DNA of 64,000 nucleotides from Escherichia coli. GTDB taxonomy: Bacteria > Pseudomonadota > Gammaproteobacteria > Enterobacterales > Enterobacteriaceae. The stretch lies in assembly GCF_003790525.1 (NCBI RefSeq), contig NZ_CP033635.1. One strand, 5' to 3'. Shown piece after piece: positions 4,068-60,529 of this stretch. The notes beneath the pieces are model-generated. The model was not told the DNA's origin and searched no databases. It saw nothing but the letters and a program-made list of their open reading frames with translations. Positions within the stretch are counted from its first letter, which is position 1. Each line of letters begins with the position of its first letter. Position numbers and translations under genes: made by a program.

Positions 4068-5882
4068 CTACTCTCCCTGTTGTCTGGCTGACGGCAGTTT
4101 CGTCGCTTTGTTAACGTCATACCACCAGGTATCGATACCCAGGCTGTAAACAGGGCGTACAGCGGGGTGGGAGAATTTATCCCACCAGGCGAGACGGTCT
4201 TCCGCCATATACCACATTGGCAGCATGTAATAATTCCACGTTAATACGCGATCCAGTGCTCGCCCCAACGGCAGTAATTTTTCTTTATTTCCCTGCGCGG
4301 CAATAATTTGGTTGATCAGCGAGTCGATAACCGGGCTTTGCACGCCGGGGGCATTATAAGTGGAATTGATATATTCCGATGACCAGGAAATCTGTAAATC
4401 GGAACTGGGCCACGGCATCGCCCGCCATACGCGCGGCATCATGTCATAGTCGCGACTGCGCATGCGGTTGGTGATTTGAGAGTTATCCACCTTGCGAATA
4501 TCCATGTTGATACCCAGACGTTGCAGGCTGTGCTGGAACGGCAATACCCACTGACTATTACTGCTTGAGGGAAGCAATAATTCAAAGCTGAGTGGCTGAC
4601 CCGTTGTGGCATTAACGCGTTGCTGACCCTTCAGCACCCAGCCTGCTTCGTTAAGAAGTTTGTCGGCTTTTAACAGGTTGTCACGATCGTAGCCATCGCC
4701 TTTGGATACCGGCGGCTGGTAGATTTGCGTGAAGACTTCTGGCGGTAGATCTTTTTTCATTGGTGCCAGAAGCACCAGCTCCGCGGCGTCGGGGTAATTT
4801 CTGGCCGCGTATTCGGTATTCTGAAAATAACTGTTCGTGCGACTCCAGGCATTGTAAAACAACGCTTTGTTCATCCATTCAAAGTCAAAGGCGAGAGTGA
4901 TCGCTTCCCGCACCCGGCGATCGCTGAATACCGGACGTTGGATATTAAACGCCAGCCAGCGCGTATCCTGGGCTGATTCGTTCTTTTGCTCATCTTTGAT
5001 GATGTATTTTTTATCGAAATTTTTACCGGTATAGCGCGTGGCCCAGTTTTTGGCGTCGTTTTCCATACGCAAATCAAAGGCACCTGCTTTAAACGCTTCA
5101 AAGGCGACATTATCATCGAGGTAATAATCGTAGCGAATGGTGTCGAAATTCCAGCGTCCACGGTTTACCGGTAAGTTTGCTGCCCAGTAATCTTTTACGC
5201 GGGAATAGACAATATTTTGCCCCATTTTCCAGGACGTAATGCGGTACGGACCACTGGCAAGCGGAGGCGTGGCGAGCGGGTCGCTAAGTTTGTGATCTTT
5301 CCAGTACTTTTCTGGAAATACCGGCAGCGAAAACAGACTCAGCATATCTTCTTTGCCGGGTTTAGCTAACTCAATGCGCACGGTTAACGGCGCAATGGCT
5401 TTGACGGTGGTGCCTTTGTAGACCAGACGAAATTGCGGCACGCCTTCGGTCATAAATTTTTGAAAAGTAAACTCTACATCGCGGGCAGTAATGGGCGAAC
5501 CATCATGAAAACGGGCGCGCGGATTAATAGCGACCTCCACCCAGGAATAATCGTCAGCATAGCGTGCGCTTTCAGCAATCAGCGGGTAATAACTGCCTGG
5601 TTCGTCATCGGAAGTCGTAAATAGCGTGTCGTACAGCTGCTCGGTGCGTGCGCCCGGGTTGCCGCGTAGTGCATAGCGGTTGAAATTATCGAAGGTGCCG
5701 AGGGCGGACAACGTTATTTGCCCACCTTTTGGCGCGGCGGGGTTCACATAATCAAAATGGTTGAAATTAAATGCGTACCGGGGTTCGCCCAGTACGGCAA
5801 AGGCATAGCTTTCCTTGATAGCCTGCGCCTGCGCACCAAAGGTGAACAGAGCGATAAACAGCAGCAGTATGCGCACAATCAT
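4068..5882 (-). CDS. yejA: periplasmic oligopeptide/microcin C binding protein
   Basis: ORF 4068..5888 (TTG) trimmed to the ATG at 5882; N-terminal signal peptide; family 5 substrate-binding protein. Confidence 0.85.
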
Positions 5883-5963
5883 CTGCAACGGATTTCCTTT
5901 TACTCATCATTAGCCGCAATCCGGCATGCTTTCACTATGAATAATAAGGGACGTAAGCACACC

Positions 5964-7520
5964 TTACCACTGCGGCGTATACGGTTTCTTCAGCCAGCGA
6001 ACAAAATCGTCCAGCGGTAACGGGCGACTAATCCAGTAGCCTTGCATGAAATTAACGCCGCGTTCGCTTAGCCATCGTGCCTGTTCTGGCGTTTCGACCC
6101 CTTCAGCAACTGTCAGCATATTGAGACGTTTCGCCAGCGTCAGCACCGCGTCAAGTACGGGTGAAGTGATCGTTTCCGTACCGATGGCGTTGATAAATCC
6201 ACGATCAATTTTCAGATAATCGAGCGTAAAACGCTCAAGATAGATAAGCGCGCTGTGCCCGGTGCCGAAGTCATCAATAGCAATTTCTACGCCGACCGAA
6301 TGCAGCCAGGCGAAGAGTTGTGTGGCTTCTCGCTCTTTCAGCATATCGCGCTCGGTAATTTCCAGCACAATCTGGAAATGGTGTGCGGGCAGGGAAGTGA
6401 GCAGTTTCTGGATATCCGCTTTAAAGCTTTCGCTGTGCAAGTGGGCCGGCGCAATGTTAATGCCAAATTTGACGCCTACCGGCAGTACTTTTTCTAATTC
6501 TGCGGCATCGCGGGCAATCAACTCAAACAGGTGCTGAGTCAGTGGCACAATCATCTTTTGCGCTTCGGCAAAGTTAATGAAGGCATCCGGGGGGATTTCT
6601 CCTGCTACTGGATGCCGCCAGCGTAGCAGTACTTCCAGGCCCGTTACCCGCAAAGCTTGTGTATCAACCACCGGTTGATATACCACGTAAAATTGTTCGC
6701 GCTTGATGGCGGTCATGATTTCTCTGCCTGGGCGCATACGCACACTCATCAGGTAATAGCAGAGAAGTCCAACGAAAGTTCCACTCATGCCACCCAGTAA
6801 AAATGCGTACCACACATCGTTCCATGTCCAGTCATCCGCATAAAGCCGAACGGTCAGAGGAATGCCCGCAATTTTAGTTTCACGGACCGGCATGTCGGTT
6901 AATTCATTAACATTCATCAAACGTGAAGAAAAGGTAGATAGCGCAGTATTACCAATAATGAGGGCGAGGCCATCGTAATCTTCCTGCCGTGAACTATAAA
7001 AGAGTGAAGGCGTCAGGTTGAGATTCAGAGCGGCAAAGACGCCGCTATTTTTCAGCAAAGGGTTGCGATACCAGATGACGATTGCGGGTTTGTTCGGCAC
7101 CATCGGCGTACCGGGTAAGATCGCCATATCGACATTTTTATTAATGTCGAGCGCCGGAATCAATTCTTTTAGTGGAATGTCCATCTCACCAGTCGCAGAT
7201 GAACAGAATGTTTTTTTATCTTTCACCAGCACAAACGTACGGACATTCATGCTAAACGCCGCGCGAGCGGTCAGTTCGGGGTTAGCCTGCTGGCAGGTAT
7301 CTAAGGTCAGCGGCTGAAGCCGGTCAGTAGTGGATTTCAGGTCGGCAAAATAGGTATCGAGATACTTTTGTACGTCGGTAATCAGTGTGTCGTATTTGAC
7401 TTCGTGCTTATGCCAGGCCACTAAAAACTGAAGGCAGCTCACCAGTATCGCAATCATCACGCCTGCAACAATGCAGGTAAGCAGGAGCTTACGTCCAGAA
7501 TTGGGAGCGCGTATGAACAT
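5964..7520 (-). CDS. rtn: EAL-domain c-di-GMP phosphodiesterase, membrane-anchored
   Basis: ORF track 518 aa; N-terminal transmembrane segment plus C-terminal EAL domain. Confidence 0.85.
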   Translation of the reverse strand: MFIRAPNSGRKLLLTCIVAGVMIAILVSCLQFLVAWHKHEVKYDTLITDVQKYLDTYFADLKSTTDRLQPLTLDTCQQANPELTARAAFSMNVRTFVLVKDKKTFCSSATGEMDIPLKELIPALDINKNVDMAILPGTPMVPNKPAIVIWYRNPLLKNSGVFAALNLNLTPSLFYSSRQEDYDGLALIIGNTALSTFSSRLMNVNELTDMPVRETKIAGIPLTVRLYADDWTWNDVWYAFLLGGMSGTFVGLLCYYLMSVRMRPGREIMTAIKREQFYVVYQPVVDTQALRVTGLEVLLRWRHPVAGEIPPDAFINFAEAQKMIVPLTQHLFELIARDAAELEKVLPVGVKFGINIAPAHLHSESFKADIQKLLTSLPAHHFQIVLEITERDMLKEREATQLFAWLHSVGVEIAIDDFGTGHSALIYLERFTLDYLKIDRGFINAIGTETITSPVLDAVLTLAKRLNMLTVAEGVETPEQARWLSERGVNFMQGYWISRPLPLDDFVRWLKKPYTPQW

Positions 7521-51045: not shown

Positions 51046-51470
51046 ATCCACCTCAATTAAAAATTGACCCTGTGAAAAATATGGTCGTTTTATAGGGTCG
51101 TCGTAAAAAAGTGACGACGGAAATAATGCGCGGCTATTTTAAAAACGAAGGCGAGTCATTCACCAGATAAATAAATCCAGTAAATTTGATTTAGGGCAAC
51201 AGCGGGTTGCCCCATATAGTCATTTGTCTGATTGACAGTGTAGTGCAAGCAAAAGATTTAATCCTTTAGGCGTAATAAAAAATAATTTATCATGCTAATT
51301 ATTTGATTTTGTTGTTTTTGCAGGCTTATCAGCAAGAGGGAGTATAACGCGATTATTCGCTCATTTTTCAGACATTTGCCATGCTTAAATGTGATGTCAT
51401 CACGTATTAGCATGGCCTTTCCCGTTATACTGCCAGCGTAAAGGATAAGTCACATATTTCTGGAGGGGAT

Positions 51471-53129
51471 ATGATTCTTGAGCGCGTTGAAATTGTGGGT
51501 TTTCGCGGTATCAACCGTTTGTCGTTGATGCTGGAACAAAACAACGTCCTGATTGGGGAGAACGCGTGGGGTAAATCCAGCTTGCTGGACGCCTTAACCC
51601 TGCTGCTATCGCCAGAATCAGATCTCTACCATTTTGAGCGCGACGATTTCTGGTTCCCGCCGGGAGATATCAACGGACGGGAACATCATTTGCATATTAT
51701 TTTGACCTTCCGCGAATCGCTGCCAGGCCGACATCGGGTACGCCGCTATCGGCCACTGGAAGCGTGCTGGACGCCATGCACCGATGGCTATCACCGTATT
51801 TTTTATCGTCTGGAAGGGGAGAGTGCGGAAGACGGCAGCGTGATGACACTCCGCAGTTTTCTCGATAAAGACGGACATCCGATTGATGTCGAGGATATTA
51901 ACGATCAGGCACGCCATCTGGTGCGTTTAATGCCGGTGCTGCGCTTGCGTGATGCCCGTTTTATGCGCCGTATTCGTAACGGCACGGTGCCAAATGTCCC
52001 TAATGTGGAAGTCACCGCGCGCCAGCTCGATTTCCTCGCCCGTGAGTTATCCTCACATCCGCAAAATCTCTCTGATGGGCAGATTCGTCAGGGACTTTCC
52101 GCAATGGTACAGCTGCTTGAGCATTATTTCTCTGAGCAGGGGGCCGGACAGGCGCGATATCGTTTAATGCGGCGGCGAGCCAGCAATGAGCAACGAAGCT
52201 GGCGCTATCTGGATATCATCAACCGGATGATTGACCGACCTGGAGGGCGCTCGTATCGGGTTATTTTGCTCGGCCTGTTTGCTACTTTGTTGCAGGCAAA
52301 AGGCACATTGCGACTGGATAAAGACGCCCGTCCATTGTTGCTGATCGAAGATCCAGAAACCCGTTTACACCCCATTATGCTTTCAGTTGCCTGGCATCTG
52401 TTGAATCTTCTGCCATTGCAGCGCATCGCTACTACCAACTCGGGAGAGTTGCTTTCGTTAACGCCGGTAGAGCATGTTTGCCGACTGGTACGTGAGTCCT
52501 CGCGCGTTGCCGCCTGGCGTCTGGGGCCGAGTGGTTTGAGTACCGAAGATAGCCGACGCATCTCTTTCCACATTCGTTTTAATCGTCCATCATCGCTGTT
52601 TGCACGCTGCTGGCTGCTGGTGGAAGGGGAAACAGAAACCTGGGTTATCAACGAACTGGCGCGCCAGTGTGGACACCATTTCGATGCCGAAGGGATTAAG
52701 GTCATTGAATTTGCCCAGTCCGGGCTAAAACCACTGGTGAAATTTGCCCGGCGAATGGGGATTGAATGGCATGTACTGGTCGATGGCGATGAAGCAGGGA
52801 AGAAATATGCCGCTACGGTACGCAGCCTGTTGAATAACGATCGGGAAGCCGAACGAGAACATTTAACGGCGTTACCGGCGCTGGATATGGAACATTTTAT
52901 GTATCGCCAGGGATTTTCCGATGTGTTCCACCGCGTGGCGCAAATCCCGGAAAATGTACCGATGAATCTGCGCAAAATTATCTCGAAAGCGATCCATCGC
53001 TCTTCCAAACCCGATCTTGCCATTGAAGTGGCAATGGAGGCCGGACGTCGTGGTGTGGATTCCGTACCGACGCTGCTGAAAAAAATGTTCTCACGCGTGC
53101 TGTGGCTGGCGCGCGGTCGCGCGGATTAA
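51471..53129 (+). CDS. ybjD: OLD-family ATP-dependent endonuclease (AAA ATPase plus Toprim), DUF2813
   Basis: ORF track 552 aa; N-terminal P-loop (GENAWGKSS); position between aqpZ and ybjX as in K-12. Confidence 0.85.
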   Translation: MILERVEIVGFRGINRLSLMLEQNNVLIGENAWGKSSLLDALTLLLSPESDLYHFERDDFWFPPGDINGREHHLHIILTFRESLPGRHRVRRYRPLEACWTPCTDGYHRIFYRLEGESAEDGSVMTLRSFLDKDGHPIDVEDINDQARHLVRLMPVLRLRDARFMRRIRNGTVPNVPNVEVTARQLDFLARELSSHPQNLSDGQIRQGLSAMVQLLEHYFSEQGAGQARYRLMRRRASNEQRSWRYLDIINRMIDRPGGRSYRVILLGLFATLLQAKGTLRLDKDARPLLLIEDPETRLHPIMLSVAWHLLNLLPLQRIATTNSGELLSLTPVEHVCRLVRESSRVAAWRLGPSGLSTEDSRRISFHIRFNRPSSLFARCWLLVEGETETWVINELARQCGHHFDAEGIKVIEFAQSGLKPLVKFARRMGIEWHVLVDGDEAGKKYAATVRSLLNNDREAEREHLTALPALDMEHFMYRQGFSDVFHRVAQIPENVPMNLRKIISKAIHRSSKPDLAIEVAMEAGRRGVDSVPTLLKKMFSRVLWLARGRAD

Positions 53130-54118
53130 CCGCGAAACATCGTGGCCATTTGTGGCTGAATAGCGTCGAGCATCTCATAGCGCCGACGGTATTCAGCCCG
53201 TTTTTTACTGGCGATTTCGGCAATCTCTTTTCGTGCTATCTGTGCTGGAAGGCGGTAATGGCGTTCAGCATCACATACGCCGCCAACCGATTCCCAGAAA
53301 GCGTTGTAATCAGCGTGGATCTTGCCTTCTTTATCGCGATAACGCAGGCTGCGGTAAATATGCGTTTCATTGCTGACGGCAATAATCTGCTCTACCTGCA
53401 AACGTTGGGCAAACAGACAGGCCGCTTCCATCACGAGGCGTTTGGGAAATAGCCCGTGGCAGGCTTTCGTCGCATTCTGGATTTCCTGATGTGGGATTTC
53501 CCATTTTGCGCCTTGCAGTCCGCCAATAAACATTGTTCTTTTCCCCTGATATTCACACAGGGTAAACGTGATCTCTGCCAGAGGAATACCTTCGCTGTTG
53601 CGAAACAGGATTGTGCTGTCACCTTCTTTATCCATTGAGATCATCATGGTCAGCTCAAGTGTGAACTGCTCGCCGTTTTTGCCTTCCAGCTTCGCCAGTT
53701 GCAGCCCGGGGGTATTCAAATATAAGCTGAATTCTTCCGCCGACATACACCCGCGGAGTAACGCATAATGGTAACGTAACGCCTCCAGCAATTGCTTACG
53801 GCTAAGATTCGCCGCAAGGTAAGGGCGATGCAGACGCACAGGCAGTCGCGGCTGGCGCGTTAACAACACATTGAGATTAGGCCAGTGGGAAAGTTCGTTC
53901 ATCCACTCAACGCTTAAACGCGGCATAATCAACGAGCGCAGCAAAAATTTCTGGCGAAAACTACGGCGATGCCAGAATTTACCCGGCCGACACTGTCCAC
54001 GTGCCAGACTAAGAAAAAGTGACAGGCTGCTGAGAGATTCAGATGGCGTAAAGGTCCGTTCAGTTAGCTGCGACATATTCATGAAATCAATGGTTATACA
54101 TGACGTCGATTTCACCAT
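53126..54118 (-). CDS. ybjX: VirK-like DUF535 protein
   Basis: ORF track 330 aa; between ybjD and macA as in K-12. Confidence 0.8.
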   Translation of the reverse strand: MVKSTSCITIDFMNMSQLTERTFTPSESLSSLSLFLSLARGQCRPGKFWHRRSFRQKFLLRSLIMPRLSVEWMNELSHWPNLNVLLTRQPRLPVRLHRPYLAANLSRKQLLEALRYHYALLRGCMSAEEFSLYLNTPGLQLAKLEGKNGEQFTLELTMMISMDKEGDSTILFRNSEGIPLAEITFTLCEYQGKRTMFIGGLQGAKWEIPHQEIQNATKACHGLFPKRLVMEAACLFAQRLQVEQIIAVSNETHIYRSLRYRDKEGKIHADYNAFWESVGGVCDAERHYRLPAQIARKEIAEIASKKRAEYRRRYEMLDAIQPQMATMFRG

Positions 54119-54232
54119 TGCGTATCTTAACCAAACATCAATAGTGTGATTACTAACGTAAATTTTAGGGTTTTGTTGATATTTCGTTGAAGTTAATGAC
54201 CCGGATTGGCATATGGAGTATTCAGAATATTT

Positions 54233-55348
54233 ATGAAAAAGCGGAAAACCGTGAAGAAGCGTTACGTTATTGCGCTGGTGATAGTCATCGCCGGACTGAT
54301 TACGTTATGGAGAATTCTTAACGCACCCGTTCCGACTTATCAGACGCTGATTGTGCGCCCCGGTGATTTACAGCAAAGCGTGCTGGCGACCGGAAAGCTG
54401 GACGCGCTGCGTAAGGTTGACGTGGGCGCGCAGGTCAGCGGTCAGTTGAAAACGCTGTCGGTGGCGATTGGCGATAAAGTAAAAAAAGACCAGCTTTTAG
54501 GGGTTATTGATCCTGAACAGGCTGAAAACCAGATCAAGGAGGTGGAAGCAACGCTGATGGAGCTACGCGCGCAGCGGCAGCAGGCGGAAGCGGAGCTGAA
54601 ACTGGCGCGGGTGACGTATTCCCGTCAGCAACGTCTTGCACAAACGCAAGCGGTTTCACAGCAGGATCTCGATACCGCCGCGACGGAGATGGCTGTGAAA
54701 CAGGCGCAAATTGGCACCATTGACGCGCAAATCAAGCGCAATCAGGCCTCACTCGATACGGCTAAAACCAATCTCGATTACACCCGCATCGTTGCCCCGA
54801 TGGCCGGGGAAGTCACGCAAATCACCACTCTGCAAGGCCAGACGGTGATTGCCGCACAACAAGCACCGAACATTCTGACGCTGGCAGATATGAGCACCAT
54901 GCTGGTAAAAGCGCAGGTTTCTGAAGCGGATGTAATCCACCTGAAGCCGGGGCAAAAAGCCTGGTTTACGGTACTAGGCGATCCGCTGACGCGCTATGAG
55001 GGGCAAATCAAGGATGTGCTACCGACGCCGGAAAAGGTTAACGACGCTATTTTCTATTACGCCCGTTTTGAAGTCCCCAACCCCAATGGTTTGCTGCGGC
55101 TGGATATGACCGCGCAAGTGCATATTCAGCTCACCGATGTGAAAAATGTGCTGACGATCCCTCTGTTGGCGTTAGGCGATCCGGTTGGCGATAATCGTTA
55201 TAAAGTCAAATTGTTGCGTAATGGTGAAACACGCGAGCGTGAAGTGACGATTGGCGCACGTAACGATACCGATGTTGAGATTGTCAAAGGGCTGGAAGCG
55301 GGCGATGAAGTGGTGATTGGTGAGGCCAAACCAGGAGCTGCACAATGA
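54233..55348 (+). CDS. macA: macrolide efflux periplasmic adaptor (membrane fusion protein)
   Basis: ORF 54206..55348 trimmed to the ATG at 54233 ([12 protein letters not shown]); HlyD-family coiled coil. Confidence 0.9.
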
Positions 55349-57291
55349 CGCCTTTGCTCGAATTAAAGGATATTCGTCGCAGCTATCCTGCCGGTGATGA
55401 GCAGGTTGAGGTGCTGAAGGGCATCAGCCTCGATATTTATGCCGGTGAGATGGTAGCGATTGTTGGCGCTTCGGGTTCCGGCAAATCGACCCTGATGAAT
55501 ATTCTCGGCTGCCTGGATAAGGCCACCAGCGGCACCTATCGCGTCGCCGGTCAGGATGTTGCCACGCTGGACGCCGATGCGCTGGCGCAACTGCGCCGCG
55601 AGCATTTCGGCTTTATTTTCCAGCGTTACCATTTGCTTTCGCATTTAACCGCCGAGCAGAACGTTGAAGTTCCCGCCGTCTATGCTGGTCTTGAGCGGAA
55701 ACAGCGGCTGCTTCGCGCCCAGGAGTTGCTGCAACGACTGGGGCTGGAAGACCGTACAGAGTATTATCCGGCACAGCTTTCGGGTGGTCAGCAACAGCGT
55801 GTCAGCATCGCGCGGGCATTGATGAACGGCGGTCAGGTAATTCTTGCCGATGAACCAACCGGTGCACTGGACAGCCATTCTGGCGAAGAGGTGATGGCGA
55901 TCCTGCATCAGCTGCGCGATCGCGGGCATACGGTGATTATCGTCACCCACGATCCGCAGGTTGCTGCTCAGGCCGAGCGGGTGATCGAAATTCGTGACGG
56001 CGAAATTGTGCACAATCCTCCCGCCGTTGAAAAAGTGAATGCTACTGGCGGGACGGAACCTGTTGTCAACACGGCGTCTGGCTGGCGGCAGTTTGTCAGC
56101 GGTTTTAACGAGGCGCTGACGATGGCATGGCGGGCGCTGGCAGCGAATAAAATGCGTACTTTACTGACCATGCTGGGGATTATTATCGGTATTGCGTCGG
56201 TGGTTTCCATTGTCGTGGTGGGCGACGCCGCCAAACAAATGGTGCTGGCGGATATTCGTTCTATTGGTACGAATACTATTGATGTCTATCCCGGGAAAGA
56301 TTATGGCGATGACGATCCGCAATATCAGCAGGCGCTGAAGTACGACGACTTAATCGCCATCCAAAAACAACCGTGGGTCGCCTCAGCCACACCTGCCGTC
56401 TCGCAAAACCTGCGCCTGCGTTATAACAATGTTGATGTGGCTGCCAGTGCCAATGGCGTGAGCGGCGATTATTTTAATGTCTATGGCATGACCTTCAGTG
56501 AAGGGAACACCTTTAATCAGGAGCAGCTGAACGGTCGTGCGCAGGTGGTGGTTCTCGACAGTAATACTCGCCGCCAGCTTTTCCCCCATAAAGCAGATGT
56601 GGTTGGCGAGGTGATTCTGGTCGGCAATATGCCCGCCAGAGTCATTGGTGTGGCGGAAGAAAAACAGTCGATGTTTGGTAGCAGTAAAGTGCTGCGTGTC
56701 TGGCTACCTTACAGCACGATGTCCGGGCGAGTTATGGGCCAGTCGTGGCTGAACTCCATTACTGTCAGGGTGAAAGAAGGATTTGACAGCGCCGAGGCGG
56801 AACAGCAACTCACGCGTTTACTTTCACTGCGCCACGGTAAGAAGGATTTCTTTACCTGGAACATGGATGGTGTCTTGAAAACCGTTGAAAAGACCACACG
56901 TACTTTACAACTGTTTCTGACGCTGGTGGCGGTGATTTCGCTGGTGGTGGGCGGTATTGGTGTAATGAATATTATGCTGGTGTCAGTGACCGAGCGGACG
57001 CGGGAAATTGGCATTCGCATGGCTGTAGGTGCGCGAGCAAGCGATGTTTTGCAACAGTTCCTGATCGAAGCCGTACTGGTTTGCCTGGTCGGTGGCGCGT
57101 TGGGAATAACACTGTCACTGTTAATTGCTTTCACCTTGCAGCTTTTCTTACCCGGCTGGGAGATTGGTTTTTCACCGTTGGCACTGCTGCTGGCGTTTCT
57201 CTGCTCGACGGTCACCGGGATTTTATTTGGCTGGTTACCCGCACGAAATGCGGCACGACTGGATCCAGTAGATGCTCTGGCACGAGAGTAA
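55345..57291 (+). CDS. macB: macrolide ABC exporter, fused ATPase-permease
   Basis: ORF track 648 aa; N-terminal ABC ATPase (GASGSGKST) plus FtsX-like permease domain. Confidence 0.95.
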
Positions 57292-57301
57292 TTTTTGAGA
57301 T

Positions 57302-57332
57302 AAAAATGCCAGCCGATCGGGCTGGCATTTTG
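57302..57332. terminator. bidirectional hairpin terminator between macB and cspD
   Basis: aaaaatgccagccgatcgggctggcattttgcc: stem with an A-run on one side and a T-run on the other. Confidence 0.65.
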
Positions 57333-57363
57333 CCTTTAGGATGTACACAATGAGACAGAAGAG

Positions 57364-57588
57364 CTATGCGACTGCCGCTTCTACTTCGACGGGCACAATA
57401 ACACTGGCGTGATTGCCTTTTGGCCCCTGGTGGACATCAAACTGAACGGATTGTCCAGCTTTTAGCGTTCTGTAACCATCCATCTGAATGGTGGAATAAT
57501 GAGCGAAAATATCTTCGCCGCCGCCTTCAGGGCAGATGAAACCAAACCCTTTGGCATTGTTGAACCACTTAACAGTACCCTTTTCCAT
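57364..57588 (-). CDS. cspD: stationary-phase cold-shock-domain protein CspD
   Basis: ORF 57364..57618 trimmed to the ATG at 57588 (MEKGTVKWFNNAKGFGFI), giving 74 aa. Confidence 0.9.
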   Translation of the reverse strand: MEKGTVKWFNNAKGFGFICPEGGGEDIFAHYSTIQMDGYRTLKAGQSVQFDVHQGPKGNHASVIVPVEVEAAVA

Positions 57589-57808
57589 GCTTCGACATCC
57601 TTCGCAAATCTTATACAAGTAAGATGGAATAAACCGGGGTCAGAGAGGGGGCTGTTCAAAACCTCGCCAACTCTAGAAATACAATTTAGAGAATTAGGGC
57701 GAGCCGTCAAGCATTTGACAGGGGACAGGGGGCAGGTATGAATCAAAAATTTGAAGCAGTTAACGCTATTGACAGGAATGTGACAGATGTCGCTGATGCC
57801 AACGATAG

Positions 57809-57920
57809 ATGATAGTTATTTATCATCTAGTGTTCGCGGGTGTTCGTGGTAGTGTTTTGTGTGCATTCATCGCTATGATTATAAAGGAAAATTTTGTTTT
57901 ACTTGTTCGCTCTTGTTCGT
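57809..57920. promoter_or_regulatory. integrase-proximal repeat cluster (possible att arm-type sites)
   Basis: palindrome GATGATAGTTATTTATCATC (57809-57828) followed by four TGTTCG repeats at 57831, 57841, 57904 and 57914; lies 70-180 bp upstream of int. Confidence 0.35.
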
Positions 57921-57992
57921 CACGGTTTGCCCTTGTACGATGCACGGTGTAGTCAATGGTGTAGTTAATTTTGATGACCGGAAACGCGAAAC

Positions 57993-59231
57993 ATGAGCAG
58001 CGCAATTCATAGACTTAGCGACACTCTTTTACGAAAATTAAGCGGATCACCAACCACAAAAAACGCCTTTTTTAATGACGGTGGCAATCTTAGCGTAAGA
58101 CATTCCACCAGCGGCCTGTTAACCTGGTATTTCACTTACAGGGCCGGAACTGGCAGGCAGGTATCACCGGAACGCCTGAGACTGGGCAACTATCCCGATC
58201 TGAGCCTGAAAGCAGCCAGGGAAAAAGCGGCACAGTGTCGCGCCTGGCTGGCGGAGGGGAAAAATCCACGCCATGAGCTTAATCACACAGTGCAGGAAGC
58301 GTTAGCCCCCGTGACGGTTAAGGACGCGCTCACTTACTGGCTTGAGTCGTATGCGAAGGAAAAGCGCACTGACCACGAATCACTGAAAAGCCGTATCAAT
58401 AAGCACATAATCAGCCAGATTGGTGCTATGCCGCTGGATAAATGCGAGCTACGCCACTGGCTGGCCTGTTTTGACCAGCTTGCTAAGCGTAATCCGGTAT
58501 CAGCCGGCTTTTTGTTGCAGGTATGCAAACAGGCGCTTAAGTACTGCCGTAAACGTCGCTACGCCGTCAGTAACGTTCTTGATGATATGGTCGTAGGTGA
58601 TGTGGGAAAAAAAGCAGAAATAAGCGAGCGAGTGCTAACAAACAAGGAGCTTGGCGAGCTACTCCGCGCACTGGATGAAAAAATTTTCCCGCCGTACTAC
58701 AGCGCTTTAATTCGCCTTCTGATTGTCTTCGGATGCCGTACCACTGAGCTAAGACGCTCCGAGGTTCGGGAATGGGATTTTAAAGAAATGCTCTGGACTG
58801 TGCCGAAAGAACACAGCAAAACGAAGGTAGCAATATTCAGGCCAATACCGGAAGCGATCTTGCCGTTCGTCATGAAGCTGGTGGAGCAGAACAGGCACAC
58901 GGGCTTATTGCTTGGAGAACTGAAAGGGCAATCATCCGTAGCAGAGTACGGAAGAACGGCACACAGACGCATTAATCAAGCCCCCTGGTCGTTGCACGAC
59001 ATCCGGCACACATTTACAACCATGCTGAACGATTTAGGCGTGGATCCGCATATTGTCGAACAGCTTACTGCCCACCAGATGCCAGGAATGCAACGCGTCT
59101 ATAACCACTCCCGTTATCTCGATGCAAAGCGTGACGCTCTTAATCTATGGGTAGACCGTCTCGAGCTTCTCCAGAACAATGATGAAAAAATCGTTGTTAT
59201 GACCCCGCGAATTTACCCCCAAAATTCTTGA
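57993..59231 (+). CDS. P4-type tyrosine integrase
   Basis: ORF track 412 aa; N-terminal DUF4102-like arm-binding region and C-terminal tyrosine recombinase motifs (HDIRHTF ... YNHSRY); not present at this locus in K-12. Confidence 0.85.
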   Translation: MSSAIHRLSDTLLRKLSGSPTTKNAFFNDGGNLSVRHSTSGLLTWYFTYRAGTGRQVSPERLRLGNYPDLSLKAAREKAAQCRAWLAEGKNPRHELNHTVQEALAPVTVKDALTYWLESYAKEKRTDHESLKSRINKHIISQIGAMPLDKCELRHWLACFDQLAKRNPVSAGFLLQVCKQALKYCRKRRYAVSNVLDDMVVGDVGKKAEISERVLTNKELGELLRALDEKIFPPYYSALIRLLIVFGCRTTELRRSEVREWDFKEMLWTVPKEHSKTKVAIFRPIPEAILPFVMKLVEQNRHTGLLLGELKGQSSVAEYGRTAHRRINQAPWSLHDIRHTFTTMLNDLGVDPHIVEQLTAHQMPGMQRVYNHSRYLDAKRDALNLWVDRLELLQNNDEKIVVMTPRIYPQNS

Positions 59232-59650
59232 CAAATTACGGCTGTTTTTTCTTTAAGAGATTACAGCCGTGAATAGATCTTAGAATATCGGGGAATATCT
59301 GCAAATATCTTCTCTTTATATGTGTCAACTATCGAAAAAAATTGAAATGTCTTCTTCTGAGTTCTTATTCTCTGTTTCTTGATTGTTCCAACATCTGATG
59401 GTTTATCTATTTGTTTTTAATGAGGTAATTCAGGTGACATGCCAAATGACGACATTTTTTGTTGCGTCGCTTAAAAACTCGTGACACGATTTTAAACACT
59501 AACGAGCTTCTACGAACCTTAGCGAACAAAGCCTTTAGCATGGTTGTGTTTTTAATTTAAGAGGTGAAAAAGAATCTAAGTAATATCCGATCTCATATAT
59601 CTACAGCTAAGAGAAAAGTTTATATACGTAATTTTTATGTAGGTTTTTGT

Positions 59651-59860
59651 ATGCGTGAAATAAATGAAGATCGCGTAATCCGTGAGGATGAATGTCGTAA
59701 GTTAACTGGAGTGTGTCGCACTACACGCTACGAACTGGAGAAAAAAGGGAGCTTTCCGTCTCGCCGTAATCTTGGTGGGCGTTCTGTAGGTTGGCTGCTG
59801 TCCGAGGTTATGGAATGGGTTAAAAGCCGGGATCGCATTAATTCAGGCAAGGCAGCGTAA
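59651..59860 (+). CDS. AlpA-family phage regulatory protein / excisionase-like HTH
   Basis: within ORF 59564..59860; C-terminal 69 aa match the AlpA pattern (KLTGVCRTTRYELEKKGSFP ... GGRSVGWLLSEVMEWV); alternative GTG start at 59564. Confidence 0.7.
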   Translation: MREINEDRVIREDECRKLTGVCRTTRYELEKKGSFPSRRNLGGRSVGWLLSEVMEWVKSRDRINSGKAA

Positions 59861-59998
59861 AGGGGAGTATATGACACATAAAACAAAGGCGACCGGGGGC
59901 GGTCGCCAATGGGAAAACACTAAACATAAGCCCGAACATCATAGCGATTTGCTGGCTGGTGGGCAATGTGTCCAGTGTGGTGGCTTGCTGGTGGATTG

Positions 59999-60190
59999 TC
60001 AGCCAGGTGGGCGGTTTTTGTTTGCTTTTAAGCGCCGAGGGTATTTCTCGACAAAAGGATCAAGGGCGAACTTATCAGGAACTTTAAGATTTTCAGTGCG
60101 GGTTAATGCCTTATTTATTTCCCTGCGGGTTTTCTCACGCTGGCGCATGATAATTGATAATGCTTTATTTTGTAGTTCCTGGTTATTCAT
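59999..60190 (-). CDS. hypothetical small protein (63 aa)
   Basis: within ORF 59999..60199; ATG at 60190 with AAGGTGA SD; basic/helical composition; convergent with alpA, separated by the hairpin ggcgaccgggggcggtcgcc at 59888-59907. Confidence 0.5.
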   Translation of the reverse strand: MNNQELQNKALSIIMRQREKTRREINKALTRTENLKVPDKFALDPFVEKYPRRLKANKNRPPG

Positions 60191-60247
60191 AATTATCACC
60201 TTTAAAACAATGCGCCGCAGTACCTCACACCACGGCGCTGATAGTGA

Positions 60248-60427
60248 TTATTCTGATTCTTTGGCCTTGCGGCGCTGGCGGTATTCAACTTCTCGCTTTA
60301 ATGCTGCTGTTACAAACTGCCCTGTACTTTCACCAGGCATTTTTACCGCCTCAACATTGTTCATAACTTCATGCGGAACCCTTGCCGCAACTGTTTGTGA
60401 TTTTGCGTTTACTGCTTTTGTCGCCAT
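60248..60427 (-). CDS. putative ribbon-helix-helix DNA-binding protein (59 aa)
   Basis: ATG at 60427, TAA at 60248; below the 60-aa cutoff of the ORF track; strand-helix-loop-helix pattern (TVAARVPHEVMNNVEAVKMPGESTGQFVTAALKRE); directly downstream of the palindromic operators. Confidence 0.5.
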   Translation of the reverse strand: MATKAVNAKSQTVAARVPHEVMNNVEAVKMPGESTGQFVTAALKREVEYRQRRKAKESE

Positions 60428-60477
60428 GTTGTGTACCCCTTACAAAAAACAAATGCAGTATGCAGGAAAAAAAATAA

Positions 60478-60529
60478 GTGTTCAACACTTGGCGTGTTTA
60501 ACACCTAGGCTTAAATTGGTGTTCAACAC
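60478..60529. promoter_or_regulatory. three palindromic operator-like sites GTGTT(c/t)AACAC
   Basis: gtgttcaacac at 60478-60488, gtgtttaacac at 60494-60504, gtgttcaacac at 60519-60529; in the divergent region upstream of the RHH gene. Confidence 0.6.

Follow-up and report, generated by a model that had tools for sequence, protein, structure and literature searches.

The gene ybjD (also named oldB) lies in the window analysed here, a stretch of 64,000 nucleotides of the Escherichia coli contig NZ_CP033635.1 (assembly GCF_003790525.1), and encodes an intact, solitary (Class 1) protein of the OLD family that is predicted from its sequence motifs and modelled fold to be a nuclease. Very probably, the locus is best explained by an intact stand-alone OLD protein with an ATP-binding switch and a Toprim effector, with ybjX as a mere convergent neighbour and with a nearby insertion sequence (IS) that has no shown effect. 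ybjD and ybjX are two unrelated, already described core genes in their usual place, and the initial annotation of the window, which set both in the core chromosome beside macAB, agrees with the coordinates, the Pfam matches and the RefSeq annotation. The identity, family, class and first phenotypes of ybjD and the inversion that flanks it have been published before. To the literature we add the count of ybjD as a core gene, its fixed locus in 80 Enterobacterales species, the ratio of nonsynonymous to synonymous substitution rates (dN/dS) and the frequent absence of ybjX and macAB beside it; what we observed ourselves are the identities of the genes, their motifs, conservation and synteny, and the junctions of the inversion. 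The gene and the parts of its product are located as follows:

51471-53129, + strand: ybjD (oldB), 552 amino acids, from the map of open reading frames (ORFs), Pfam and RefSeq annotation
YbjD layout: ABC-type ATPase at residues 1-375 (DUF2813, with a helical insertion), Toprim domain from 376 to about 470, then a helical C-terminal region
51555-51578, + strand: Walker A motif (P-loop) GENAWGKS, residues 29-36 with K35, from the translation
52335-52358, + strand: Walker B motif LLLIEDPE, residues 289-296, from the translation and the alignment with GajA
52596-52880, + strand: Toprim domain with E385-G-E387-T-E389 and D438-G-D440

YbjD of the window is identical to K-12 YbjD (b0876) in 551 of 552 residues, with the conservative substitution M489V as the single difference, and ybjD is thus a known K-12 gene, as had been stated. 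Pfam assigns residues 1-375 to DUF2813 (E 2e-160) and residues 376-440 to OLD-like_TOPRIM (E 4e-16), and AAA_15 and AAA_21 also matched. NCBIfam gave only N-terminal P-loop matches to YbjD, far under the cutoffs. Conservation of the motifs was assessed in an alignment of 47 rows (A1), which consists of the query, the Salmonella ortholog (90% identity) and 45 full-length relatives (28–54% identity) drawn from a search of 1.8 billion representative proteins. The Toprim residues E385, E387, E389, D438 and D440 are invariant in all 47 rows, as are D472, E474 and K513, which lie just past the Toprim domain in the C-terminal region. The Toprim residues align with VEGDAE and TDLD of the Burkholderia Class 2 OLD structure 6nk8. 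With a mean identity to the E. coli protein of 54%, Toprim ranks first among the domains in conservation; the N-terminal ATPase lobe reaches 31% and the helical insertion 17%. The initial annotation had proposed to confirm an intact ATPase and Toprim catalytic site, and had named absent catalytic residues as what would speak against its claim: Walker A, Walker B and all Toprim residues were found in YbjD, so that every expected motif is present.

The ATPase motifs are looser. G29 and E30 of Walker A are invariant, and K35 is kept in 42 of the 47 sequences, with R or S in the other five. The acidic pair of Walker B is E293-D294 in YbjD, where D-E is canonical, and is E-D, E-E or E-N across the alignment. 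At the position of the histidine in the T-H-S motif of GajA, YbjD has an asparagine (TTNS, residues 321-324), a residue found in 33 of the 47 sequences including that of E. coli. What is known of ABC ATPase motifs is the ground for reading such deviations as weak hydrolysis. Because of the replacements of K35, the Walker B pair that is not D-E and the asparagine in place of the GajA histidine, the ATPase domain may, by analogy with ABC ATPases, be a nucleotide-binding module that is poor at hydrolysis. An antisense ORF of 272 codons within ybjD (52205-53023, − strand) is broken in Salmonella into stretches of 118 and 127 amino acids and was rejected as spurious, since it is not preserved there.

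Several lines of evidence place YbjD in the OLD family, as the initial annotation had done with its description of an AAA ATPase plus Toprim nuclease: the Pfam matches, PADLOC, profile searches of the PDB, Foldseek and the Toprim alignment all agree. The profile built from the alignment matched GajA (1.3e-20), the Thermus scotoductus OLD protein 6p74 (2.1e-19) and the Burkholderia protein 6nk8 (4.9e-6). An AlphaFold2 model of YbjD (predicted local distance difference test score, pLDDT, 84.6) had GajA (1e-18), 6p74 (4.8e-17) and the OLD protein of retron Eco8 (4e-14) as its top Foldseek folds. The GajA and Old models of PADLOC match YbjD strongly, the Old model with an E value of 2e-24. YbjD thus combines the features by which OLD proteins are recognized, namely the ATPase motifs, a C-terminal Toprim domain with conserved glutamate and DxD, and similarity to solved OLD structures.

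YbjD has itself served as a seed for defining the OLD classes, and E. coli is listed among the solitary Class 1 members (Schiltz et al., 2019; PMC6755086). In line with Class 1, no conserved UvrD/GajB helicase and no retron partner (reverse transcriptase or msr-msd) stands beside ybjD. Synteny and identity were examined in the best 80 loci, one genome per species, all from Enterobacterales; there ybjD is bordered by aqpZ or lysO at one end and by ybjX, macA or cspD at the opposite end. A GajB/UvrD-like helicase was found within 6 kb on either side of ybjD in none of the loci examined in these 80 species. We therefore reject ybjD as a Gabija system, as it lacks an adjacent GajB and its match to the PADLOC GajA model reflects OLD homology only. 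A P2 Old-type prophage exclusion gene is likewise rejected, given the fixed core chromosomal locus across Enterobacterales.

Comparison with known systems supports this placement. K-12 YbjD/OldB (b0876) is the same gene with the same neighbours (aqpZ, ybjX and macAB), and its start and stop match the primers of a 2026 study (PMC13261556). The window copy differs from it by M489V and by its location, which in the window lineage is near an IS-bearing inversion junction. The T. scotoductus protein 6p74, a structurally characterised Class 1 member, shares the domain order and the solitary gene with YbjD, but identity is only about 16%, and YbjD belongs to the DUF2813 subfamily with its E-D pair in Walker B. 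GajA (PDB 8sm3, 8jq9) is the best profile and fold match and shares the IE-x-PE Walker B and the LL(I/V)EG Toprim glutamate; for both proteins nucleotide binding is reported to restrain activity (PMC13261556). GajA differs in that it keeps the histidine of T-H-S and has a GajB partner, which is not found beside ybjD. The archetypal solitary OLD protein, Old of phage P2, is 18% identical to YbjD (PMC6755086); it is prophage-borne and kills recBC cells, whereas YbjD is a chromosomal core protein that does not kill a temperature-sensitive recBC strain (recBC(ts); PMC13261556).

The same subfamily was seen in other contexts. Three distant DUF2813-Toprim relatives are also solitary and stand among ordinary genes. 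One of them, a YbjD-family protein on the metagenomic contig L088 (832-2532; 42% identity, C-terminal half), is directly flanked by a Phd/PIN toxin-antitoxin pair and by a family-B DNA polymerase gene. Six very long proteins of 1000–1900 amino acids (P0149, P0162, P0163, P0165, P0175 and P0196) contain a segment that is 40–45% identical to residues 255-500, approximately, of YbjD. This segment comprises the C-terminal ATPase lobe and the Toprim domain, which suggests fused architectures built on the OLD subfamily of YbjD.

The evolution of ybjD resembles that of a housekeeping gene. One full-length copy with at least 95.7% identity occurs in 5424 of 5426 complete E. coli genomes, and together with the fixed locus this bears out its description as a conserved single chromosomal gene. 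Identity of YbjD declines from 99% within E. coli to 97% in E. albertii, about 91% in Citrobacter, about 85% in Klebsiella and Enterobacter and about 80% in Buttiauxella and Cedecea, and reaches 66–68% in Serratia, Pectobacterium and Brenneria. The frame hcp-lysO-[aqpZ]-ybjD-[ybjX]-[macAB]-cspD-clpS is found in nearly all loci that have enough flanking sequence. Exceptions are few: hcp was not detected in three loci, L040 has no lysO, L070 has no hcp, lysO or aqpZ, and L087 has no hcp. The bracketed genes vary. Klebsiella, Raoultella, Superficieibacter and some Cedecea have no ybjX next to ybjD, Pectobacterium, Brenneria, Mangrovibacter and Shimwellia have neither ybjX nor macAB there, and aqpZ is missing from this place in Salmonella and others. 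The YbjD proteins of E. coli and Salmonella are 90% identical in amino acids and align without insertions or deletions, and the dN/dS of ybjD for this pair is 0.037, compared to 0.05–0.07 for macAB and 0.18 for ybjX (57% amino-acid identity), values that are comparative only because dS is saturated (about 1.8). As a vertically inherited single-copy gene with a fixed locus in Enterobacterales and under strong purifying selection, ybjD evolves like a housekeeping gene, unlike a mobile gene of a defence island. Its assignment as an accessory defence-island gene is rejected on the same counts, that is single copy in 5424/5426 genomes, constant synteny and a dN/dS of 0.037.

What YbjD does has been addressed by genetics. 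Atahualpa et al. (2026; PMC13261556) proposed the name oldB and found ybjD expressed at native level. The phage challenge of a ybjD deletion strain that the initial annotation had suggested is contained in that 2026 study: the Keio deletion behaved unchanged with 68 phages of the BASEL collection (PMC13261556). Arabinose-induced YbjD reduced the plating of Bas18 and Bas20 and made the plaques of Bas64-68 smaller, an overexpression phenotype that needs the ATPase domain but neither the Toprim domain nor its acidic residues (PMC13261556). The K35A variant retained the phenotype and was more toxic, and, unlike P2 Old, YbjD did not kill the recBC(ts) strain (PMC13261556).

From these data and the motifs we infer an ATP-gating model and a native nuclease role. 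The nucleotide-binding domain would act as a switch, in which binding of ATP, rather than its vigorous hydrolysis, keeps the protein restrained, and the two-metal site of the Toprim domain would cleave a nucleic-acid substrate in the native role. Restraint by ATP is suggested because it was reported for GajA and because of the toxicity of K35A, and a switch coupled to a constrained nuclease fits the invariant Toprim residues (47/47) and the looser ATPase motifs. Several points weigh against this model. Firstly, the work on YbjD in PMC13261556 is genetics only and demonstrated neither ATPase nor nuclease activity. Secondly, the sole phenotypes come from overexpression, in which the Toprim domain and acidic residues are dispensable, and this is awkward for a nuclease effector unless the overexpression phenotype differs from the native function. 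Thirdly, the argument for ATP gating has a single mutant (K35A) behind it, together with motif deviations that are interpreted through comparison with GajA and ABC ATPases. The saturated dS, lastly, makes the dN/dS values comparative only. There remains a contrast between the nuclease as the most constrained part of YbjD and the only reported phenotype, which does not need it.

We tentatively go one step further and consider it possible that YbjD is a domesticated housekeeping OLD nuclease with an ATP-binding switch, in which the Toprim domain would serve in core DNA or RNA repair or processing and the anti-phage effect would be a side effect. This is suggested by the presence in 5424/5426 genomes at a fixed locus, the dN/dS of about 0.04, the invariant nuclease residues, the degenerate hydrolysis motifs and the null phage phenotype of the knockout. 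A parallel is seen in Cran1, an archaeal OLD protein that is essential (cited in PMC13261556). A somewhat doubtful alternative is that YbjD is primarily an anti-phage nuclease of abortive infection or exclusion, comparable to P2 Old and to the OLD protein of Vibrio cholerae, that would act at native level on phages or other invaders beyond those tried so far, and whose core status would be that of a long-retained immune gene. Its OLD membership with the matches to the PADLOC GajA and Old models speaks for this, and so do the lower plating of Bas18 and Bas20 and the smaller plaques of Bas64-68 upon induction (PMC13261556). However, the deletion was unchanged with the 68 BASEL phages, RecBC-linked killing did not occur and the Toprim domain was dispensable for the overexpression effect (PMC13261556). 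Defence genes are usually accessory, patchy and fast-evolving. ybjD occupies one fixed locus across the order, is found in 5424/5426 E. coli genomes with a dN/dS of 0.037, and has no constant defence or mobile neighbours, all of which argues against a primary role in defence. OLD proteins are treated as immune effectors, yet the solitary YbjD evolves in a housekeeping-like manner. The finding as such matters little, and this contrast is the one point in it to keep in view. ybjD is a convenient model for the role of a solitary OLD nuclease in the uninfected cell, in the best-studied bacterium.

Upstream of ybjD, two elements are candidates for its expression signals:

51426-51431, + strand: candidate −10 hexamer TATACT of ybjD, 40 nt before the ATG, from sequence conservation
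51462-51466, + strand: Shine-Dalgarno sequence GGAGG of ybjD

Both (C/T)TATACT and GGAGG are kept in most of the Enterobacteriaceae genera aligned, and TATACT is a candidate −10 element of a promoter of its own for ybjD. A consensus scan for promoters and terminators over 50300-54300 was uninformative, as promoter-like sites were fewer than in shuffled sequences. LexA boxes (CTGT-N8-ACAG with at most one mismatch) were not found in the intergenic region between aqpZ and ybjD, and window-wide counts equalled chance. SOS control of ybjD is therefore unsupported by this search. An Rfam scan of 47500-58500 at a permissive threshold detected no RNA family in ybjD, ybjX or the IS, and an mmgR match was a chance one.

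Downstream, ybjD meets ybjX, behind which the macAB operon and cspD follow:

53126-54082, − strand: ybjX with corrected start (longest ORF 53126-54118), from Pfam DUF535 and RefSeq annotation
54100-54118, − strand: ybjX promoter core, with the −10 element TGAAAT at 54114-54109 and the transcription start T at 54100; the sequence matches the description in PMC12562796
54233-55348, + strand: macA, from Pfam and RefSeq annotation
55345-57291, + strand: macB, from Pfam and RefSeq annotation
57364-57588, − strand: cspD

YbjX is identical to K-12 b0877 in 328 of 330 residues. Its description as VirK-like is sound, as it matches DUF535 (PF04393), the VirK/YbjX family, over the full length (E 3e-102, profile positions 2-280 of 281); NCBIfam gave no match to YbjX. 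Of the gene positions first assigned, ybjD at 51471-53129 stands, but the ybjX start at 54118 does not. Primer extension and start-codon mutagenesis in Shigella showed that ybjX transcription starts 18 bp past the old ATG and that translation begins at M13 or M15 (PMC12562796). The corresponding proteins have 318 amino acids from M13 (54082) or 316 amino acids from M15 (54076). In the window, the −10 element and the transcription start are both downstream of the formerly annotated ATG (54118-54116). Position 54118 is therefore not the true start, because this ATG lies upstream of the mapped transcription start, and RefSeq also uses 54082. YbjX is known to be activated by PhoPQ; it is a GNAT-like protein of the cytoplasm that, jointly with VirK, contributes to outer-membrane integrity (PMC12562796). 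Within the VirK/YbjX family, with YbjX and VirK of Shigella and VirK of Salmonella and Klebsiella, the window gene is the chromosomal ortholog and shows no notable difference.

ybjD and ybjX are convergent, and their stop codons overlap by 4 bp (TTAA, 53126-53129). As this overlap leaves no intergenic space, each transcript would extend into the neighbouring gene. Among the convergent excludons listed from RNA-seq data is this pair (PMC12288877). The overlap may have a regulatory consequence, but not a general one, given how often ybjX is missing. A terminator-like hairpin (53185-53202) lies inside ybjX, 56 nt past the ybjD stop. It is very unlikely that the two genes form a two-gene module, either as a nuclease with its partner or as an excludon in which PhoPQ-driven transcription of ybjX silences ybjD. 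The 4-bp overlap of the convergent stops is kept between E. coli and Salmonella, which together with the excludon listing (PMC12288877) would favour a module. However, ybjX is missing beside an intact ybjD in several genera, so that synteny disfavours the protein-partner version; the dN/dS of ybjX is about five times that of ybjD, opposite strands preclude an operon, and YbjX has a separate documented role in the envelope with VirK (PMC12562796). Since ybjX and macAB are missing beside ybjD in many genera, ybjD and ybjX are not a functional unit and ybjD is the constant element.

macA and macB form the operon of a tripartite ABC efflux pump and are divergent from ybjX (Pfam, RefSeq). Over cspD, a sub-threshold Rfam match to the cspA thermoregulator (57300-57693, − strand; 41.6 bits versus a gathering threshold of 78) covers the coding region and the 5' leader. 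The gene order is concordant between the ORF map, Pfam and the RefSeq annotation of matching records. Positions 44000-57826 are 99.99% identical to strain SMS-3-5 (NC_010498.1), with two differences in 13.8 kb, and the gene names are the same in the RefSeq annotation of the SMS-3-5 stretch that matches at 100% identity.

On the other side of ybjD lie aqpZ, the IS and dusC:

47633-48580, + strand: dusC
48631-50287: hybrid TRIP1 repeat in two parts (48631-48725 and 50110 to about 50287) on either side of the IS
48726-50109, + strand: IS110-family element (IS1111-type), 1384 bp, from comparison with the empty site in K-12
48811-49836: IS transposase, 341 amino acids, Pfam DEDD_Tnp_IS110 and Transposase_20
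50350-51045, − strand: aqpZ (aquaporin), oriented divergently to ybjD and separating it from the IS, from Pfam MIP and RefSeq annotation

The statement that ybjD lies within 1.5 kb of an IS110-family element is correct, as the right end of the element is 1361 bp from the ybjD start. The element does not adjoin ybjD, since aqpZ (50350-51045) is in between and the IS sits inside a TRIP1 repeat downstream of aqpZ. Its boundaries were set by comparison with empty sites in K-12. The transposase matches NCBIfam transpos_IS110 (3e-108; 362 bits against a cutoff of 140), and the element has the subterminal inverted repeats ATGGACGCTCC and GGAGCGTCCAT near its two ends, a non-coding region of 273 bp downstream of the transposase gene, and AT on both flanks. 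A DEDD plus Transposase_20 protein, subterminal repeats and a downstream non-coding region characterise the IS1111 group (PMC11187229). All three are present, and by its sequence the element is a member of the IS1111 group of the IS110 family. It shares the DEDD transposase, the subterminal repeats, the downstream non-coding region and a site-specific target with elements such as ISEc11, but the target of ISEc11 is different. TRIP1 (…TTTTACAGGG-AT-GTTACCTCG…) looks like the specific target of the window element. In the non-coding region, the 9-nt GAGGTAACA (49947-49955) is complementary to the right target flank TGTTACCTC, a correspondence that is suggestive but short of significance, as matches of at least 8 nt occur in 12% of shuffles. 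Such complementarity to a target flank is the kind of match expected from a seekRNA or bridge RNA guide.

That the nearby element changed the regulation of ybjD or mobilised it, so that this copy differs functionally from that of K-12, is highly improbable. In its favour are the distance of 1361 bp between the IS and the ybjD start and the fact that the inversion marked by the IS moves ybjD to the other replichore. However, aqpZ and the entire 425-bp intergenic region between aqpZ and ybjD intervene, collinear with the K-12 sequence and 97% identical to it, the only change in YbjD relative to K-12 is one conservative residue, and the near-symmetric inversion would nearly preserve replication orientation and distance to the terminus. 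We found no link between the IS and ybjD.

The TRIP1 repeat that harbours the IS is about 270 bp long and is followed on the left by dusC, located at 2.23 Mb in K-12, and on the right by aqpZ, at 0.916 Mb in K-12. The reciprocal junction lysO-IS-yohP-mdtQ is found in SMS-3-5 at 907899-913390 (IS-bearing repeat at 5017-6675 of locus L005), with the IS in opposite orientation. Both junction copies of the IS have the same AT insertion point in TRIP1 and are eight single-nucleotide polymorphisms apart. The reciprocal junction is present in 51 complete genomes, and in 85 a match extends over 80% or more of window positions 46000-58000. For SMS-3-5 a 1.31-Mb inversion between TRIP1a and TRIP1c was published (PMC10888264), and the window junction, which marks an inversion of about 1.3–1.4 Mb, belongs to this terminus-spanning rearrangement. 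A term search of that paper finds 'IS110' in the reference list only, and within the reach of this search the IS at the junctions is apparently not discussed. In K-12 coordinates the inversion extends over 0.915–2.229 Mb with a midpoint at about 1.57 Mb and is thus roughly symmetric about the terminus. The outer flanks of the junctions are cleanly reciprocal, and at diagnostic sites the TRIP1 core is near-identical between TRIP1a and TRIP1c. Because of this near-identity the crossover cannot be placed in either the IS or the TRIP1 core. Recombination between the two IS copies may plausibly have made the inversion, as no other homologous stretch comes near the 1.38 kb of the IS in length.

A further mobile element occupies the end of the window (57827-64000). 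It is a P4-like satellite or one resembling a phage-inducible chromosomal island (PICI), starts 14 bp past yljB and occupies the interval from cspD/yljB to clpS. Neither SMS-3-5 nor K-12 has it, and positions 57000-64000 are matched over at least 80% in only 5 of the 5426 complete genomes. The window part encodes a tyrosine integrase (57993-59231), a helix-turn-helix regulator, an Icd-like protein, DUF4222 and a primase. The satellite of strain TUM9803 is about 10.6 kb long and also contains genes for a single-stranded DNA-binding protein (SSB), PerC, a ProQ/FinO-like protein and a small terminase.

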